A stretch of 62,808 nucleotides of DNA, counting the filler, from Globobulimina sp. (taxonomy: Eukaryota), in NCBI GenBank assembly GCA_003354225.1. It is 47 parts of 47 records of this genome, joined end to end, with 100 filler letters (N's around TTAATTAATTAA, not from the genome) between each part and the next. Parts side by side here need not be neighbours in the genome. Positions count along the whole stretch, not along the records: positions 30,801 to 32,039 come from PIVH01020336.1; 46 more parts are not named here. One strand, written 5' to 3'. The position numbers were made by a program, and so were the translations under genes. This document shows, piece after piece, positions 2,681-54,786 of this stretch (the first letter of the stretch is position 1; each line of letters opens with the position of its first letter). The notes under the pieces are model-generated. The model was given only the letters and a program-made list of their open reading frames with translations. It made no database searches and was not told the origin of the DNA.

Positions 2681-3765
2681 TTTTACTATGGATATATCCC
2701 TGAAGGTTTAGCGAACAAATCATCATTAAAAATACTAAAAACAATAACAACAAAGTTATCAAAATACCAACAAGAAATTTGGGATATCGTCGGTATGCTG
2801 CATAGTATCTCTCTGCTTTGCCTGTTTTACATTAAGTGCTGGCAATGAAAAATCATGAAATTTGCAAAATATATACCTGTAATGACACTGTTCCGTATTA
2901 CACCGCGAAATTGAGGGCGAACATCGGATTGAATGAGGAATTTTTGCTTTGAGAATGAAATTGTGTTCCATTCCAAAGCCAAATCTGATGCTCTTCGATT
3001 CCAATATTTCACCAAAAAATGCGACCAAATGCAAACAAATAATGCAAAAAACGGCATATATTTTGATTCGTCAATATCGAATTCATCAGAACGAGTGAAA
3101 AAAAACAGCAAGCCACAAATACTTGGGATACTTAACCATTTTGTATAATGTCGCATGAATGCGAAATAAAATGCGATTTCTTCACCAAAATAGTCACGGA
3201 TTTTGTTCAAATTATTGGTATGGGCAAAATGCGAAAAATAGGATGAAAAATTAAAAAATAAATTCCATTTTTTCATTTTATGTGTATCTGTGATATCATT
3301 CATTGGGAAAATGTCGACAATGATTTCTAAATTTTTATAGATTGTCATTACTTTATCCATCAAAACTAAATGTAAATTTTTATTGTTTTTGTTCAACATT
3401 TCAATTAATTCGCTATCAATATTGATATTTTGCAATGTTGTCTGAATAATATGGCACAGCAATGATGATGGCAAAATTGCAGATTTTGGTAACTTTTGAA
3501 ACGAATCGATTTGTTTTGAACGAGATTCTTCGTCTTTGTTTATTTTCACATTTATGGCTAAATATTCTTCTAAATGTTCTTCCGTGGATAGATAATTAAT
3601 TAGCCACTCTTTGGATGTATAAATTTTAAAGAAATCTAATGTATTCTCATGAGATACTAATTCAACCAATAATCCAGTGTCTTTAATGCGTCTCAGCAAG
3701 TAATCTGTGAGTTTGCTATCGACTTTCTCATGCAACGTAATGATATATTCTGCTGCTTTCGACAT
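2681..3765 (-). CDS. Anoctamin/TMEM16 (ANO10-like), 3' truncated
   Basis: IRDYFGEEIAFYFAF, FLVKYWNRR...LALEW, RPQFRG; intron 2822-2876 leads to SLNLQGYI. Confidence 0.92.
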
Positions 3766-4020
3766 TGCAACGCAAGCTGAAAATCTCTGAAGTGAAATTT
3801 AAAAGTTGAAATATATTTTCTCTGTACAAACAAAAAATAATTAATATTTAATATTTTAATATATTGACAGTATTCACGTTTTCAATGCGATTATTGAACC
3901 GAATTTTGGCATTTCTGATGNNNNNNNNNNNNNNNNNNNNNNNNNNNNNNNNNNNNNNNNNNNNTTAATTAATTAANNNNNNNNNNNNNNNNNNNNNNNN
4001 NNNNNNNNNNNNNNNNNNNN

Positions 4021-4897
4021 CTGGTGGCAATACAACATTTCTTATATTGTATTGTATGGCTCTCACAATCTGACTGGCCACATATTCTTGCTCTAAAAAA
4101 TAACAACCACACAATCTCGTAACCACTGATTTCGAAGCAACTGCGCCTTTAAACATTCCCGTATTCACTAAATATGGCATAATTATACTGCTTCCAATAT
4201 GCGTGTGTCCCATTTCTTGTATTTCCTGGAATAGTGACTCTGCCAAACCGCGCGATGCATATTTTGTAGCACAATAATCAGTTAACATCGGTACACCAAC
4301 TCTTCCCGCAGACGATGCGATTGTTACAATCTGACACCAATCTCGATTTGCAATCATCTTTGGTAGAAACGCTTTGATGGTAAAAAAATGTGAAATTACA
4401 TTCACATCAAAAGATTTCCGGATTTGTGATTCTTTTAAATCTAACATTGCTTTTCCAGTTAGAATGCCTGCATTATTTATTAAAATATCAATACCATTTT
4501 CATACTGTTTAAATACACATTGTGCTGCTTCTTCGACTTTTGATCTATTTGTAATGTCAACAAATAATGCCATGTCGACATTACTTCTCATTTCATCTAA
4601 ACCCGCTTTGTTTATATCCCATACAATAACAATGGCCTTCATTTGTTTTAATAATAACGCGGTTTCACGACCAATGCCACTGACTCCTCCGGTTATTAAT
4701 ACCACCTTATTGTTTAATGAGCGCTTACCTCGAATATACTTCTTATTACGATGATAGAGCCACATCATGGTTGCGATAATAACAAACATGGCAAGTTTAG
4801 GATTTTGTTGTCTCCATCGTATGAATTTGAATAATAATGAAAAAACTGCATTTTTAACAGCGGACATGATACAACCTAACCAATAAAAAGGATGCAA
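4021..4897 (-). CDS. Short-chain dehydrogenase/reductase (SDR16C/RDH10-like)
   Basis: TGGVSGIG, NNAG, YCATK catalytic motif, PYLVNTGMF. Confidence 0.93.
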
Positions 4898-5359
4898 AGC
4901 AGTTTCTGAAGATAATTTGGAACAAGTTTATAATATATATCTAATTTTAGGTGAATTATGAAATTATGAATGCAGATATATCTGTGATGAGATATAAATC
5001 CAATTCCCTGCATACAGTTAAATCATAGCTGGGTTTGTATACATAGGTAGACCTAATGGCTAATGTATAGCGCTGAATTTGAAATTAAACAAGTTTCAAA
5101 TTTGCTTGTTTGGATAGAATAAAATGCATACCTTTAAAGTTTAAAGCTTTTCATAAAAAGCAATCCATAAAAATGATATGCTTTACAGTTTCTTGACACA
5201 AAATAAGATTGGGTTTCATCAATAATTTTGGCCATATCACCTATACTTCCTTTTGTTTTNNNNNNNNNNNNNNNNNNNNNNNNNNNNNNNNNNNNNNNNN
5301 NNNTTAATTAATTAANNNNNNNNNNNNNNNNNNNNNNNNNNNNNNNNNNNNNNNNNNNN

Positions 5360-6598
5360 GACATCGATTTTACAGAGAATGAGACCAATACGTTCGAGTT
5401 GCGCGACGGCGGGAAAATAAGTTACGGCGATTATTTGAAGAAACAATATGGCATTAAAGTGGCGCGCAAAGAGATGTGCGTCATTAAGGACTTTCGAGGC
5501 AGCGCGTATTTGCCGCAGTTTGCGCATTTGACGTTGCGTAGTGACGAGACGGACGATTTGCATGTGACTGATTTTACCAATCCCGGCATTGGTGAGGAGT
5601 TATTGCGGGTTAATGCTTTGGTGCAACATTTGAATAACACACAAGTTAAGTCACAGTTTGTTTGTTTGCATATTGCAGTGTATCGGAAAAACCGTCTGAT
5701 TTTATTTTATATTCCAGGCCAAAGTGGTGAATAAAAGGAAGAGAGGCAATCGCGGCGATATCGATGATGAGAAAGAAAAAGCAGTGGTGCGGTATGGGTT
5801 GAATATGAATAATAAGCCTATTCGAACGTATTCGGTGATATTGCAATATCCCGATATTAGTATCATGGCATTTGGCAATCGTATCAAAACCACGCCATTG
5901 ACGGAGTTTACATGGGGTGGCCGCGAAGGGACCAAAGGCTTTCTATTGAACGTGAAACCAATCAGGAAATGGATTATTATCGGAAGCAGTCCAAGAATGA
6001 TCGATCGAGTGTTTGAAATCTATCACAAATACACCGGAATGCGCGGCTTTGATGCACAGAATGGACCGTTACAGAGCCCGCAAACGCAAGTGATTGACTT
6101 CAACGATTCAAGCAATTATAAAACGATTGCGAAGGGAAGATGGGAGTTAATATTTGCAATCATTCCCGACAACAAAGCCGGGTCGCAAATAAAGACGTTG
6201 TTTAGTAAACAATTGCAAGGTTTCAAAACCGCGCCGGTTATACAATGCATTAAAGAATCAACGGTGTTTAGCCGGAGCAGCAGGGATAGCATATTGGGTG
6301 CGATTGAACAGTCGATGGGCAAATTCGGCAATGTTTTATACCAAATTACACCCAAATTACAGCCACATTCGCCGTATAAATTGGATAAAATATGGACGAT
6401 TGGCATCGATATCAGTCATAATTTTCCGAATCCCTCTGTTGCTGCGCTGACATTGATAACCATGCCGTTCTATGGCACGCAGCGTGGGTTAAGCACCAAA
6501 ATATGGTTAAACACCCCACGAAAAGACACCATACCATACGCAGCGACGGCAACGTGTACGTATAAGGCATTGAAAGGTGAGATTGAACTAATTAAGAA
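5360..6598 (+). CDS. Divergent Piwi/Argonaute protein fragment (PAZ-L2-MID-start of PIWI)
   Basis: PAZ-like FELRDGGKISYGDYLKKQYGI...YLPQFAHLT; intron 5645-5717 joins in frame; MID-like VIQCIK; PIWI IGIDISH...PSVAA. Confidence 0.85.
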
Positions 6599-7109
6599 NN
6601 NNNNNNNNNNNNNNNNNNNNNNNNNNNNNNNNNNNNNNNNNNTTAATTAATTAANNNNNNNNNNNNNNNNNNNNNNNNNNNNNNNNNNNNNNNNNNNNAT
6701 CTCAGAATGTAAATTTTGTTATTCCATAAAATCTCCGTCTGTTTGTATGCATAAAACGAAAAGTTTTGATTCTGTACACACATTGCGTTGAGAAAGGGTA
6801 TCCGAGCGACCTGAGATTGAAATTTGATAGATTCGTCTGTGATTTTCATATTGCTGGATTTTGACTTTTGAAATGTGTTTTGTGTTCTTTAATGCCATTT
6901 GTTTGACCTTCCAAACGTTCAGCTATTATCGCAGGAAACTCCATGACATAGATGCGTTTGAATTTTGTACATAAATCCAAAATGCCATCGCAAATGCCAT
7001 CGTGATGTGTGTTTTTAAAAAGCTATTTGTTTTTACTTACTAACTCAAGCTTAATCCGGCTGCATTGTACTGCAAAGTTGAGATTATTTGGTAGAAATAC
7101 AGAATGAAT

Positions 7110-7880
7110 GTATTGTATCGATGTCAATTGGAAAGATTGGATGGGATGTTTCCCACGTTTGAGACTTATGGAAATAAAATATTGAGTCTGGATGGATTTT
7201 TGTGATATTAATTATTTGGAATGTTACAGTTGTTGCTATATTGCAATGTCATACACATTTTCAGATACAAACAATGAAAGATGATATTCAATTTTTATTA
7301 AAGGCAAAATTTACAAGCTGTGGTCGTTGGTACTGCTCGAGAAAGTGAAGGTGTTTGTTATGAAACATATTTATTTAAATATTTAATTTATATCGTATTT
7401 TTATTAATTAAATTGGTATTTGCGCATAAATGCCGCAATTTTCTTTTGATATTATTTCTTTGAAAACTGTCAACAGTTTCATTAGTTACTAAGGTGCAAG
7501 GATATATCAAAAAAAATTTGCAGCATTTTTGTGCAATTAATAGAACTTAAATTAATATTTTTCATCTAAACGATCCTTGCAATTAACAAGAGAACTTTAG
7601 TCATCTTTCAACAACTTGTTCTTTTCTCCTATTCCTCCATATTCCCATCACATATTCCTCATATATTCGTAAAACTAAAATATACATTATGCCCTATAGC
7701 GTTGCAAAATATTTATGCGAAAATGCGTATGACATTGCTATATGTCAACATCACAAATAATTAATATCCATCCATACAAAAATACACACAGTTAATTAAT
7801 ACATATTCAATATTTCATATTTACATAAGTTTCAAATCTGCGATAAATCCCATCCACATTTTCCAATTGATACACTGATA
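7110..7880. repeat. Diverged inverted duplication: convergent 3' ends of two paralogs (about 7110-7260 and 7720-7880)
   Basis: + strand DVNWKDWMGCFPRLRLMEIKY* vs - strand CINWKMWMGFIADLKLM*; downstream sequence also aligns (ggatgga...tattaattatttg...gcaatgtcatac). Confidence 0.7.
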
Positions 7881-18749: not shown

Positions 18750-19988
18750 ACTGGAATGTTCACTGACAGCTTGCTGAGGAACGTCAATGTTTTTTGAGAC
18801 TGTAGAGGCTTCACCATTCAACCCCTTTTCGATCTGATTGACTGTGAGCTGAGCAATGGCACCAACTTTGACTGGTCCATCTGGCTGACTATTAGAGTCC
18901 GGTCGACTGCCCAAACCAGGGCTGGAGCTCCGCTGAAACGTAGGACCTAAATTCTTATCAGCATTTTCTAACAACAGCTCACCGTATCGAGTGCCACCCG
19001 ACTCCAGGGGCTTTTGGCACAATATGATCGACTGATTGGAGCCTTCTGAACATTGACCAAACTGTTCAGTACCAAAATCTGGCTGACCACTGACAACCTT
19101 TGAATCCAAACACCCACTGAATGCAAATGTTGATTTATTGACCAATTCACGGTCTGACGAGAATAATAAATCCAGGCAATCACTGTGGGAACTGTTTGGT
19201 GATTCACAAATGTCCTTCTCGACTTGACATTGAAGTAATAGATTGTCCTTATTGTCCAATGACTGACCCCCACCATCAAATAACCCGGTGGTGTCACATG
19301 GACCAAACTGGTCACAAAATGAGGTGCTACTGTGTGCACGGGGCGTGAATTTATAGCCACTGGCACTGTCACGATGACCTAAAAATGATGCATGAGCAAT
19401 GACCGATGACACACCATCGCATTGACTTTCATGCACACGCGAATCGCTGACATTGTCACTACAATAACTAGTGACTGGCTGATTGGCGAGTTCTCCTGAA
19501 AATATAGCACCCGATACCTTATCAGGATGAACGAATGTCTCACCGATCCTGGGGGCTGTACTGCTCTCAATTGTGGCAGCCCCCACCATCTTTGCTTGTT
19601 TGAGAGACTTTTTCTGGTGACTTGAGCTGACAGACTGACTGGTGAATCCTTTCATCACACTGGAGTTTATTTTACATCCATCAGGGATGCGTGCACGCTT
19701 GCCTCCCTCTGTCACTCGATACTGATCAGTTCCATTTGCAGTTGAGCTTGATACATTTCCGGCCGGACTGTTAGCTCCTTCTTTCTCTGAAAGCATCTGC
19801 AAATTATCAGTTAAAAACGAAACATTGTCACCTAAACCTGTAGCTTTTGAATGCCCATTTGAAGCCAAGCTACCAAACTTCGTCGCAAAAGAGTTATGTC
19901 CAAGTTCACCACCCGAACTGGACTTGGCAGGATACACGACCATTGCATCCGCTTGATAAACACCATTGACCTTGTAGCCACTCAAAAT
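18750..19988 (-). CDS. Ser-rich, probably disordered protein exon; unknown function
   Basis: Open frame of more than 400 codons; GC content higher than neighbouring contigs. Confidence 0.55.
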
Positions 19989-30660: not shown

Positions 30661-30937
30661 AAGAGCATGGCAAGAAATTGTAAAAAAAGCGAAGTACCTG
30701 NNNNNNNNNNNNNNNNNNNNNNNNNNNNNNNNNNNNNNNNNNNNTTAATTAATTAANNNNNNNNNNNNNNNNNNNNNNNNNNNNNNNNNNNNNNNNNNNN
30801 GTTGTCAAGGTATATGGACATAGTGTACCCACACCAAGTTTCAAGTCTCTATCCCTTCGCTTCTTGGAGTTATACAACTTTTGACCAAGTGGCGCTGGGC
30901 ATATTTCAGTAAAATGGTCGCGTTACACTCCCCCTGA

Positions 30938-31246
30938 TATGGACAGGATATAGCTAACTTTCTGAATAACTTAGGTTCTGATATAGTCTCACCATTTAGA
31001 GTTCAAAGTGATGACTCAGTTGTTTGTGGCGCCTATGTTTGTTATATTGCACATTATTTGGTTTTGGGTTATTCTTTGGGTTCTATTTATGCTAAATTCA
31101 ATAATGGTAATTACTTGCACAATGATATGAATGTTTTGAAATGGCTTTACACTAACTTTGGTTTTATTATGGACTTGTATAAGTGTAATCCTGGTGATCA
31201 ATCATGTGCTAGTATGAATAATATTATAAAACAGAAAATAAAGTAA
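30938..31246 (+). CDS. Adenain-type cysteine protease (Polinton/adintovirus), C-terminal half
   Basis: Open frame from 30938: RVQSDDSVVCGAYVCY (Q...CG catalytic motif), later NDMNV and QSC; directly upstream of the ATPase. Confidence 0.75.
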   Translation, partial: YGQDIANFLNNLGSDIVSPFRVQSDDSVVCGAYVCYIAHYLVLGYSLGSIYAKFNNGNYLHNDMNVLKWLYTNFGFIMDLYKCNPGDQSCASMNNIIKQKIK

Positions 31247-31277
31247 AAAATTTTCATTTGCTTTCTATGCATTCACC

Positions 31278-32014
31278 ATGACAACACGTTTCAATGGTTT
31301 TTGGTTGCGTACACCATTTACATCATGTATAATTGGCCCATCCAAAAGCGGCAAGACTGTACTGACCGATAAATTGGTACAAAATTGGGACTGGATTAGC
31401 TGCAGTACGAAACTTGAACGATTTGTGTTGTTGTATGATTGTTGGCAGCCGATTTATGACCAGATACTTGGACAAGTACCTGAAGGAGTAGAAGTCATTT
31501 TGAAACAGGGCTTTCCAATGGAAGAACTGCGAAGTGATAAATTGTTCAAAACTGGTGGTAAAGCAACTTTGATAATCATCGATGACCTTAGCACCGTTAT
31601 GGAAAACAGTAAAGAAGTCAGACAAGCTGTATCTCGTCTATTTCGAGTATTGTCCCATCACAGGTACACAGTACGGCTGACATGCTAACTGCCAACATGT
31701 ACTACATTTTCAGGAATATAAGTTGTTTTCTAATTTTACAAGAGATTCCTACAAACAAAGACATGAGTTGCATAATCAGAAACACTGATTACTTTTTTGT
31801 GACACAAGGCAACGAAGACCAACTTGTTACCTTGCAGCGAAGGCTGTTTACTTATCGCAGAGGGTTGCTGATTGACGCGGCGAAATGGGCTTTCGAAAAC
31901 CACAAAAGTCTGTATCTTTGCATAGACAGGAAACCTGATACGCCCATTGAAATGAAATTGCGCATAGGAATGCTACCCAATGAAATTGGAAGGGTATTGC
32001 AACCTTTGACTTGA
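31278..32014 (+). CDS. A32/FtsK-like DNA packaging ATPase (Polinton type), one intron, 228 aa
   Basis: PFTSCIIGPSKSGKT Walker A, LIIIDDL Walker B; intron 31664-31713 restores SHHR|NISCFLILQ; RNTDY, YLCID, LRIG. Confidence 0.92.
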
Positions 32015-45520: not shown

Positions 45521-46758
45521 GTTCTCGGTCGCAATTGATTGATATTAAGTACATACAGGCGTAGTTTTCGGCCGACTTTCCATGGCTGTTGTTGTCTTTT
45601 TAACTTTCTCTTTTTCTTGGTACATACTTGCTTTCGATTTTCGGCTTTCCATAGCCATTGGTCGACGTTTTCTTTCCTCTTTTTCGGTCGATTTTTAGTC
45701 TTTTTGTCGCCGGTTCTATGGAGTCGTTTCTGGACTGTTGATTTTCGAATTTTCAGCCGAATTTTTCTGTTTTCTTTCTTCTTTCGTATACCAGTTTTCT
45801 GTCGATTTTTGGTGATGAATAGTTGCCCTTCGTCCTCGTTTTCACAAGTTTTGTTTTCTTTGGAAAATTTGGGCATGACCCGTAGCCGATTTTCTACTAC
45901 TCCATTTTGAACTTGATTTTCGTCACTCCATGCACAAGTGTTGCTTATCGAAGAAAAATCGGGCATGACCCGTAGCCGTTTTGACAAAACTGCATCTCGA
46001 CCGACGATTTCTTCTTTACCCATTTGGGCGATGATGCTCTTTTGAGCGCCGCGAACGCCGATTTTCTTTTCGTTTTTTGTCTTTGTTGTGTTGATGCTCG
46101 TTTGAGCGCCGCGAACGCCGATTTTCTTTTCTTCTTGGGTCTTTGTTGTGATGAGTTTTTCTTCACCAATCTTTGTTGTGATGAGTTTTTCACTATTCTT
46201 TGTGGGACCTTTGTGGTTGTTTAGCCATTGACAGATGATATACATTCCTGTTGCTATTCCCATGATGATGAACCAATGGTTGTTTCCAAAATTTAGATGG
46301 CAAAATTTTGCACGTTTTTGCTCAAAAATCTTTTTCCTGTCCATCTCTATAACTGTTGTGTTGTCTAGAAAAGAGCAAAATGTAGATATTGGACATTCTT
46401 CAACTATCAGTTGTTTCTCTTTGAGTACCCTTTCTCTCATCTCCATTACTCTCTGAGTCGTCCCATTTGTTTGTACAGTACCTTCGACGCTTTGTAACAG
46501 TACCAATATCAATATGGCACTTGTACAGTACATACTTGGACACATAATTGAAACTTTTATACCGTTTTTATCCTTCCATTCTCGTTTCTGGATCGGTTTC
46601 TTTCCTTTGACTGATTTCTGTTGAATTCGTGATGGTTTCCCCACTTCAGTCTTCTTATTTGTCTTTTGTTGAGCCGTCCTTGGTGAATCCAAAATCCCAT
46701 TAGCTGCCACCATTGTTGTAGGATGATCGAGTGGATTCGTTGTTGTGAGGCTGTTGAG
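45521..46758 (-). mobile_element. Probable non-LTR retrotransposon ORF leading into an APE endonuclease start
   Basis: Intronless frame across the whole contig; basic tract ending LRLYVLNINQLR (APE motif I-like); internal direct repeats. Confidence 0.5.
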
Positions 46759-53548: not shown

Positions 53549-54786
53549 GAACCTGCAAAAATAAAATTGTATATGTCCGATTTTTGGAATGATATTGTCG
53601 CTTTAGGGATTTGGCCTAAATCGGATGATAATATGAAACGACTAGGATTATGTGACATTATAAACGGCACCGATAAATTGGACTTAGAAAACGACATATC
53701 ATCAGCAGAAATGAAACAAGCTTTAGATAAACTGAAAAATAATACCTCATCAGGTACAACAAATATTCCTGCAGAATTTATGAAAAACTGGCCTACTGAA
53801 ATGATAGAAGCAGTACGAATCCTGTTTAATAACTGGTTCAATAGTGGGTTCTTTCCAGATATAGGGAAAACTCAGGAAGTCACATTACTACATAAAAAAG
53901 GATCAAAAAGTAATATAAAGAATTATAGAACACTAAGCCTGGGATGTAACTTATGCAAACTATATTTAATGATATTAACTAAAAGATTAGAATTGATATC
54001 CGAAAAGAAAAATTTACTTGGTTATATACAACACGGGTTCAGATCTAACAAAAGAATTGAGGATTGTATACTTACTATTCAACATACAGTACAAAAAGCA
54101 AAAAAAGGGAATAACTCAGCAACAATTGCCCTATTAGATATATGCAAAGCGTATGATAGAGTATGGAGACAAGGTTTATGGAAAAAACTTAAAGATTTAG
54201 GATTCCCGGATAAATTAATCAATGCAATTAAAAGTAGTTACAATGACCCAGGTGCAACAATAACTTTCCAAAACATAACAACTGAAAAATTATCAATGCC
54301 AGTTGGACTTAGACAAGGATGTACAATGTCACCATATTTATGGGCAATATTTATCTCGGACCTAGGTAAAGAAATTGAAAAATGTAACTATGGAATCAAT
54401 ATTGGAAACACTGAAAACAACAAAATTATATCAGGATTATTCTTTGCTGATGATATGCTCTTATTCGCTAAAAATGAGGAAAATATGGTAAAACTATTAA
54501 AAATAGTAGGGGATTACGCCCAAAAATGGAAAATTGAATTCTCAGGACCAAAAAGTTTAATAATACCCTTGAACAGAGAAACCGACAATGATAAAAAGTG
54601 GAAACTAGGAAAAAAATTCCTGAATGAAACGGACGAGACAGACATATATATTAAGGAAGAAAAAGAAGCAAAATACTTAGGAATAACACTTAGTAACAGC
54701 AATAAAGATATCACGAACCAACACAAATCTAAGTTAGGTGAACAAACAAAAAAAGAAGCATACAGATGTTTCAAACCAGCTCTGGC
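53549..54786 (+). mobile_element. Non-LTR (LINE) reverse transcriptase ORF fragment
   Basis: LHKKG...NYRTLSL, QHGFR, LDICKAYDRV, GLRQGCTMSP, FADD, KYLGI; frame intact. Confidence 0.96.

Follow-up and report, generated by a model that had tools for sequence, protein, structure and literature searches.

A short spliceosomal-type intron appears to interrupt the packaging ATPase gene of a virus-like element in a contig of the Globobulimina sp. assembly GCA_003354225.1. The window, i.e., the whole stretch of DNA analysed here, has 62,808 bases and is made up of 47 separate contigs of 1237-1240 bp, ordered by length, with TTAATTAATTAA between two runs of 44 N as the linker from each contig to the next. 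Because these contigs are unlinked and unplaced, adjacency inside the window has no biological meaning. The finding is confined to one 1239-bp contig at 30801-32039, with a G + C content of 0.381 (window contigs range from 0.26 to 0.46, with a median of 0.33). This contig very probably represents part of a virus-like element of the Polinton/Maverick kind (Preplasmiviricota-type) in, or co-assembled with, an AT-rich eukaryote. It would carry part of a virion-morphogenesis module: the 3' part of a protease gene, a complete packaging ATPase gene and the start of the next gene (Table 1).

The ATPase gene has a Walker A motif (GPSKSGKT, 31335-31358), a Walker B motif (LIIIDD, 31569-31586) and an SHH motif at 31653-31661. 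Every sequence feature listed in the original prediction, namely QSDDSVVCG in the protease, the 31-nt spacer, both Walker motifs and the intron, was found at its place. When the 50 nt are removed, the split codon AG|G is read as arginine and the spliced product would have 128 + 1 + 99 = 228 amino acids. The position of the splice was examined with homologues of the two exons. Exon 1, searched with HMMER against 1.84 billion representatives, gave 238 matches at E <= 1e-3, many of them to proteins of 220-240 amino acids. Exon 2 was compared by BLAST with 153 collected proteins and matched 50 of them (E <= 10). Projected onto these 50 homologues, the two exons leave a gap of exactly one residue, the split codon, in 33. 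The gap is 1-3 residues in 43 of the 50; the remaining seven are weak or gapped matches, with gaps of 19, -2, 7, -30, 37, 24 and -2. Restricting the set to exon-2 matches at E <= 1e-3 leaves 29 homologues, 21 with the one-residue gap. In the alignment the family motif is SHH-x-N-[IL]-[ST], with SHH contributed by exon 1 and NIS by exon 2.

Alternative splices were scored as well. There are 21 in-frame, stop-free GT..AG removals with donors between 31560 and 31719, and each was compared with a profile of 63 homologues. The proposed splice is the best of the 21: it reaches 218.0 bits (E 1.2e-67), and the runner-up 201.8. The original prediction held that removal of the intron restores an SHHR-NIS frame, and it is upheld by the top-scoring splice, by the adjacent mapping of the two exons and by conservation in relatives.

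Close relatives of the ATPase (P0001, P0002, P0003, P0004/P0157 and P0154) are 69-91% identical to it in exon 1 and are recorded as short open reading frames (ORFs). For six close relatives the similarity to the window ATPase ends directly past SHHR. A tyrosine follows SHHR in the five relatives that read on, as expected when AG|GTA is read through unspliced; P0004 and P0157 stop at SHHR. The read-through tails align with the window intron and with wrong frames of exon 2, and arithmetic from these tails implies introns of about 50 nt in P0001, 49 nt in P0154 and 56 nt in P0003.

The interruption can be followed at the nucleotide level in L001, a public contig of 2907 bp whose ATPase has 94% amino-acid identity to that of the window over residues 82-128. 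Its intron, of 46 nt, lies at the same codon. Both introns have the terminal sequences GTACA and ATTTTCAG, but they are identical in only 32 of 51 aligned columns, with three indels. The window intron has a CTAAC element at 31685-31689 (GCTAAC, 31684-31689) with its A 25 nt upstream of the 3' splice site. This element, named as a canonical branch site in the original prediction, is present here but not conserved in L001. Over 147 codons the exons of the two contigs show 86.7% nucleotide and 91.9% amino-acid identity and no internal stop. By the Nei-Gojobori method the synonymous divergence (dS) is 0.80 and the nonsynonymous divergence (dN) 0.038, for a dN/dS of 0.048: purifying selection on the ATPase exons is strong. 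The interruption is at the same codon in each of the seven related copies, and the intron lengths (about 46-56 nt) are not multiples of 3.

Ends and codon position that are kept, an interior and length that drift, and exons under strong purifying selection argue for an intron rather than a disabling insertion. The 50-nt interruption is, on this evidence, a genuine spliceosomal-type GT..AG intron. Very little credence can be given to the alternatives that the 50 nt inactivated the gene, leaving an ATPase pseudogene, or that the two genes are domesticated host genes. The protease of this copy is indeed broken, and the splicing of the ATPase is read from DNA sequence, but a pseudogene would hardly show GT..AG ends at one codon in seven copies, a length that varies (46-56 nt), and exons with such a dN/dS and without internal stops. 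Domestication of single genes, for its part, fits poorly with spacers of 31 and 20 nt and a conserved start of the downstream gene.

More distant relatives bear on the age of the intron. Of 157 proteins searched for an SHH motif with the expected spacing from Walker A, 98 had one. Seventy of the 98 read on for more than 45 residues in one ORF, typically as SHH-R-N-L-S-V. The other 28 have short tails, and among them only the six close relatives (at least 69% identity) diverge at once after SHHR; in the rest, homologous sequence continues past SHH before the end. Because distant relatives are uninterrupted, the intron was gained within this element family, and then kept at the same codon, rather than being ancestral to the ATPase clade. 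Contigs from three runs of one sample contained no joint across the intron. The intron sequence has no repeat elsewhere in the window, and a naive GT..AG scan of the other window contigs for host introns was uninformative (305 candidates, compared with 260-494 for control dinucleotides).

Table 1. Features of the ATPase contig (window positions) and of the distant virophage contig L002 (its own positions)
Feature	Positions	Strand	Basis
Left flank, repeated sequence unrelated to the protease gene	30801-30937	.	tblastn; run X1 contigs
Putative protease gene, 3' fragment; 102 codons + TAA (31244-31246)	30938-31246	+	85% identity to P0158 residues 82-183
Protease-ATPase spacer, 31 nt	31247-31277	+	sequence reading
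ATPase exon 1; ATG at 31278, 128 codons + 2 bases of the Arg codon	31278-31663	+	homologue alignment
Predicted intron, 50 nt, phase 2, GTACAC...GCTAAC...TTTTCAG	31664-31713	+	exon mapping; splice scoring; relatives
ATPase exon 2; last base of the Arg codon + 99 codons (to 32011) + TGA (32012-32014)	31714-32014	+	homologue alignment
Next gene, first 5 bases (ATGAA), 20 nt past the ATPase stop; contig end	32035-32039	+	L001 alignment, where the ORF runs 133 codons
L002, Sputnik-like minor capsid protein	3408-5054
L002, major capsid protein	5200-7227
L002, distant A32-like ATPase, at contig end	9361-10323

The ATPase belongs firmly among the A32/IVa2-like (FtsK-HerA type) packaging ATPases of the PRD1-adenovirus lineage, an assignment that holds at the level of the lineage and not of any branch within it. 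The K, D and D of the Walker motifs are invariant in the 63-sequence alignment. Pox_A32 (PF04665) matches 27 of these 63 full-length homologues at E <= 1e-3, with a best E of 8e-10, and Adeno_IVa2 (PF02456) matches nine; in a first set of homologues five of ten were at or above the PF04665 cut-off. An AlphaFold model was made with the same alignment for the homologue P0006, which is about 38% identical to each exon. Its predicted local distance difference test score (pLDDT) is 93.2 and its predicted template-modelling score (pTM) 0.91. The best PDB match of the model is the genome-packaging NTPase B204 of STIV2 (E 1.7e-6, template-modelling scores 0.53/0.61), followed by HerA, EssC/EccC (FtsK-like) and RecA-fold ATPases. 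Its best matches in BFVD are A32-like ATPases of giant viruses, adenovirus IVa2, an adintovirus FtsK-like protein, and the ATPases of Sputnik V3 and mavirus (FtsK-HerA). Among the language-model neighbours of P0006 in the Atlas, 28 of 30 are clusters carrying Pox_A32; the taxon labels of its clusters are Preplasmiviricota, Nucleocytoviricota, Nematoda and Arthropoda. The earlier call of an A32-like ATPase thus finds support in the Pfam matches, the fold and the language-model neighbours of the homologues. The homologue profile gave only generic P-loop matches against PDB sequences, and PHROGs and NCBIfam searches of the window's own pieces gave nothing significant. Some distant relatives of the ATPase (P0013/P0156, 480 amino acids) are fused to C2H2 fingers.

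The ATPases of STIV2 (B204), poxviruses (A32), adenoviruses (IVa2), Sputnik V3 and mavirus have a fold in common with the modelled homologue, and Walker A and B motifs occur in both. They differ in sequence, identity in the fold alignments being only 10-22%. None of the genes for STIV2 B204, A32, IVa2 or the virophage ATPases is known to be split by a spliceosomal intron at the SHH motif.

Giant viruses (Nucleocytoviricota) have genes of both kinds, for an A32 ATPase and for an adenain-like protease, and the contig could in principle come from an insertion of such a virus. This is quite improbable. The best BFVD fold matches are giant-virus A32-like ATPases and one top Atlas cluster is mostly Nucleocytoviricota, but BFVD is dominated by giant-virus proteins, and the ATPases of adintoviruses, virophages and adenoviruses score about as well. 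The first ATPase cluster, like the Atlas neighbours of the protease relative, is labelled Preplasmiviricota. The small size of the ATPase (228 amino acids) and its packing 31 nt from the protease also argue against a giant virus.

The protease gene is represented by a 3' fragment. Its frame contains FRVQSDDSVVCG and the motif QSDDSVVCG, in which Gln is at 31004-31006 and Cys at 31025-31027 (Cys-Gly, 31025-31030). The closest relative, P0158, has 183 amino acids, starts with Met, is 85% identical and spans the whole window fragment. By eye, its GHW, VDSF, LQS and VCG give the order His, Asp, Gln, Cys, which matches the His, Asp/Glu, Gln, Cys order of adenain (MEROPS C5, PF00770). In both P0158 and the window fragment the Gln is 7 residues before the Cys; Gln115 and Cys122 of adenain have the same seven-residue spacing. 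The window copy differs from adenain in having no His and Asp part: the residues carrying GHW and VDSF in P0158 are absent, and of the catalytic His-Asp/Glu-Gln-Cys set only Gln and Cys are left. The language-model neighbours of P0158 in the Atlas (score 0.97) are virus clusters labelled Preplasmiviricota. Eighteen of 30 neighbours belong to the family set of a cluster at rank 2 that carries Peptidase_C5 on 24% of members, and three to that of a cluster at rank 9 (Peptidase_C5 20%, Peptidase_C48 14%). From its motifs and these Preplasmiviricota neighbours, the fragment is likely to derive from an adenain-like cysteine protease, and this identity is best treated as a lead. The adenain-like C-terminus described in the original prediction is of a kind found in Preplasmiviricota elements, but it is only the 3' fragment of a gene with its 81 N-terminal codons absent.

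The break in the protease is sharp. In tblastn, homology to P0158 begins exactly at 30938, which corresponds to residue 82, and residues 1-81 are unmatched upstream of that position. The left flank was considered as an intron of the protease gene; this was ruled out, there being no AG before 30938 and the preceding in-frame codon being TGA. In run X1 of the sample, one contig of 199 nt agrees with 30801-30938 except for 8 differences and from there runs on in unlike letters, and another contig departs at 30855. The summed contig depth in this run is much higher over 30801-30937 than over the genes. The segment 30801-30937 is probably a repeat or a transposon end that cuts off the protease gene. 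None of the X1 contigs listed covers 30939-30981 or bridges 30938. The breakpoint at 30937/30938 may be the trace of a transposon insertion or of a rearrangement as a genomic copy decayed, or else a chimera made in assembly. The present copy is damaged. The description of the element as virion-competent does not hold for this copy, whatever the origin of the junction, because the catalytic His and Asp part is absent; its protease has lost 81 N-terminal codons and abuts repeated, unrelated sequence. A relative bearing P0158 and P0001 may have both genes intact. Each of these two proteins is reported from a contig of 2163 nt, possibly one and the same.

Other copies of the element occur in the same material. 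Contigs of run X1 carry L001-type differences at 31942-31992. Another contig of that run matches only 31632-31666, and its flank encodes ...ENNKEVRNSI..., as in P0004. At least three diverged variants (of the window, L001 and P0004 types) are therefore present together in run X1. Purifying selection between copies at a dS of 0.8 implies that the lineages were functional while diverging, and the element would have been active, in several copies, during that time.

The source of the contig might instead be a free, episomal virus of Polinton-like or adintovirus-like type in the sequenced material, in which case the genes and the intron would read alike. This is unlikely. It would suit a contig that is unplaced, only 1.2 kb long and without a host gene, and relatives that come from short contigs with Logan, ENA, NCBI and JGI/IMG source labels; the occurrence of contigs on the stretch in one of three sample runs is weak evidence in the same direction. 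However, the protease breaks off where it meets sequence that recurs in other settings elsewhere in the same run, which has the look of decayed genomic copies, and several diverged paralogous variants are found together in that run. The intron itself would mean nuclear expression and does not separate an episomal from an integrated element. Integration of the element in the host genome is inferred.

The surroundings of the ATPase gene have the compact, virus-like look of short spacers, 31 nt between protease and ATPase and 20 nt between ATPase and the next gene. In L001 the sequence continues for 2.4 kb past the ATPase. Four ORFs lie at 512-2821 of this contig: one of 133 codons that begins with the conserved ATG, a 162-residue frame ending in a weak C2H2 finger, and two of 120 and 278 amino acids, the last on the minus strand. 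Relatives were also sought in IMG/VR. Scans with ATPase exon 1, P0039 and P0158 found no relative, and a scan with P0007 gave only a distant (25%) virophage contig, L002, of 10325 bp. The ATPase of L002 lies on a contig that also has genes for both capsid proteins (Table 1), which illustrates only the place of the wider ATPase family in morphogenesis modules. Capsid genes, for which the original prediction had proposed a search, were not found by Pfam among the 92 window ORFs of at least 95 amino acids; nor did these ORFs have an rve or DNA_pol_B_2 match. No other window contig has sequence in common with the ATPase contig or L001.

Several of the results weigh against assigning the contig to a Polinton-like element with a spliced ATPase gene. 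The ATPase contig has no linked pPolB, integrase, capsid gene or terminal repeat, and the four downstream ORFs of L001 include no significant Pfam match, to capsid families or others, and no other recognisable hallmark gene. The two window exons, searched separately, have no significant Pfam match (there are sub-threshold P-loop matches, and none to PF04665), so that the A32 assignment comes by way of homologues of 30-40% identity and the fold model of one homologue, not of the window protein. For the protease, the window fragment has no Pfam match at E <= 1 and no PHROG match. P0158 has no Pfam match, PF00770 included, at E <= 10, no NCBIfam match at E <= 1 and no PDB sequence match at E <= 10, and its single-sequence AlphaFold model is unusable (pLDDT 38.5). 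Splicing is deduced from genomic DNA. Contigs on the stretch come from run X1 only, with none from two other runs of the same sample, which is no proof of absence. Finally, with no X1 contig across 30938, the junction could be an assembly artefact.

Polintons, or Mavericks, are described as defined by pPolB and an rve integrase together with major and minor capsid proteins, an adenain-like protease and a packaging ATPase (PMC10748475, PMC5718144). With two genes of this morphogenesis module matched, the contig probably belongs to a Polinton-like element. The likeness lies in a probable adenain-like protease adjoining an A32-like FtsK-HerA ATPase of about 230 amino acids, in the compact spacing, and in the presence of multiple diverged copies in one sample. 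The present element differs in that its ATPase has a conserved spliceosomal intron, and in that pPolB, rve, capsid genes and terminal inverted repeats are unlinked to the contig. The ORFs of intact vertebrate Mavericks are said to lack introns (PMC8097293), "in agreement with Kapitonov and Jurka (2006)". Introns of other kinds have been reported. Polinton-like viruses of some protists carry group I introns (PMC12220804). Maverick-Polinton-like proviruses of dinoflagellates carry transposon-like introners (10.1101/2025.03.18.643946). As described there, these proviruses resemble the present case in having spliceosomal introns in or near genes while morphogenesis genes are kept; they differ in that their introns are copies of transposon-like introner families, whereas the ATPase intron is 46-56 nt long, occupies one codon position and has an interior that diverges freely. 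In the full texts searched, an incomplete set, no Polinton packaging ATPase was found to be described as carrying a spliceosomal intron that is short and conserved in position.

If the predicted structure is correct, the ATPase mRNA would be spliced by the host nuclear spliceosome. Removal of the 50 nt would recreate SHH-R-N-I-S and give a protein of 228 amino acids, which, judging from its family, would power packaging of the genome into a capsid. A position-conserved intron in a core packaging gene would make the lineage dependent on the nuclear spliceosome. The conserved intron would also be a clean marker with which to trace the family and date intron gain in a virus-like element. There is a practical side as well. 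Polinton-like elements are usually annotated by intron-blind ORF finders, and the close relatives in public protein sets are all recorded as truncated ATPases ending just past SHHR, which implies that the ATPase is mis-annotated wherever the family occurs. Apart from the intron, the contig is an ordinary, partly damaged fragment.

A second intron-bearing candidate is the pPolB-like contig at 38831-40068. On its minus strand, a frame ending in ...LYFDT is followed by a 51-nt GT..AG stretch, 39932-39882 (GTCAGA...TTTTTCAG), and then by DSVVWV...KTYA. The stretch is likely to be an intron splitting polymerase B motif C (YxDTDS). The pPolB-like pieces were unrecognised by Pfam and had no relative in IMG/VR. 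Of the 46 other contigs, the pPolB-like one comes closest to the ATPase contig in trinucleotide composition, at a distance of 0.0373 (the median of all pairs is 0.0615 and the 5th percentile 0.0364). The suggestion in the original prediction that the two contigs belong to one family gains a hint of common origin from this composition, and nothing more. Similar intron length is what the host splicing machinery would produce, and is no evidence linking the two. A second possible short intron of the pPolB-like contig lies near 39680-39650.

It is possible, if somewhat doubtful, that the ATPase and pPolB-like contigs come from the same still-active Polinton-like lineage, one that has acquired and selectively retained spliceosomal introns in its morphogenesis genes. 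If this were so, transcription and splicing in the host nucleus would be obligatory for the lineage. Such a lineage would make intron gain in a virus-like mobile element tractable to study, and intron retention could serve as a switch for production of the packaging ATPase.

Other contigs of the window carry ordinary eukaryotic genes, including those for Ras, PTR2, anoctamin, lipin, a TRAF zinc finger protein, TIR, PAZ and ferric reductase. One contig, at 53549-54784, is spanned by an open frame with a reverse transcriptase domain (RVT_1, E 5.5e-34); this is a retroelement fragment unrelated to the ATPase contig. Two more, at 18750-19988 and 45523-46758, each consist of a single contig-long open frame of 412-413 amino acids without a Pfam match, and their G + C contents of 0.46 and 0.40, respectively, are both above the window median.

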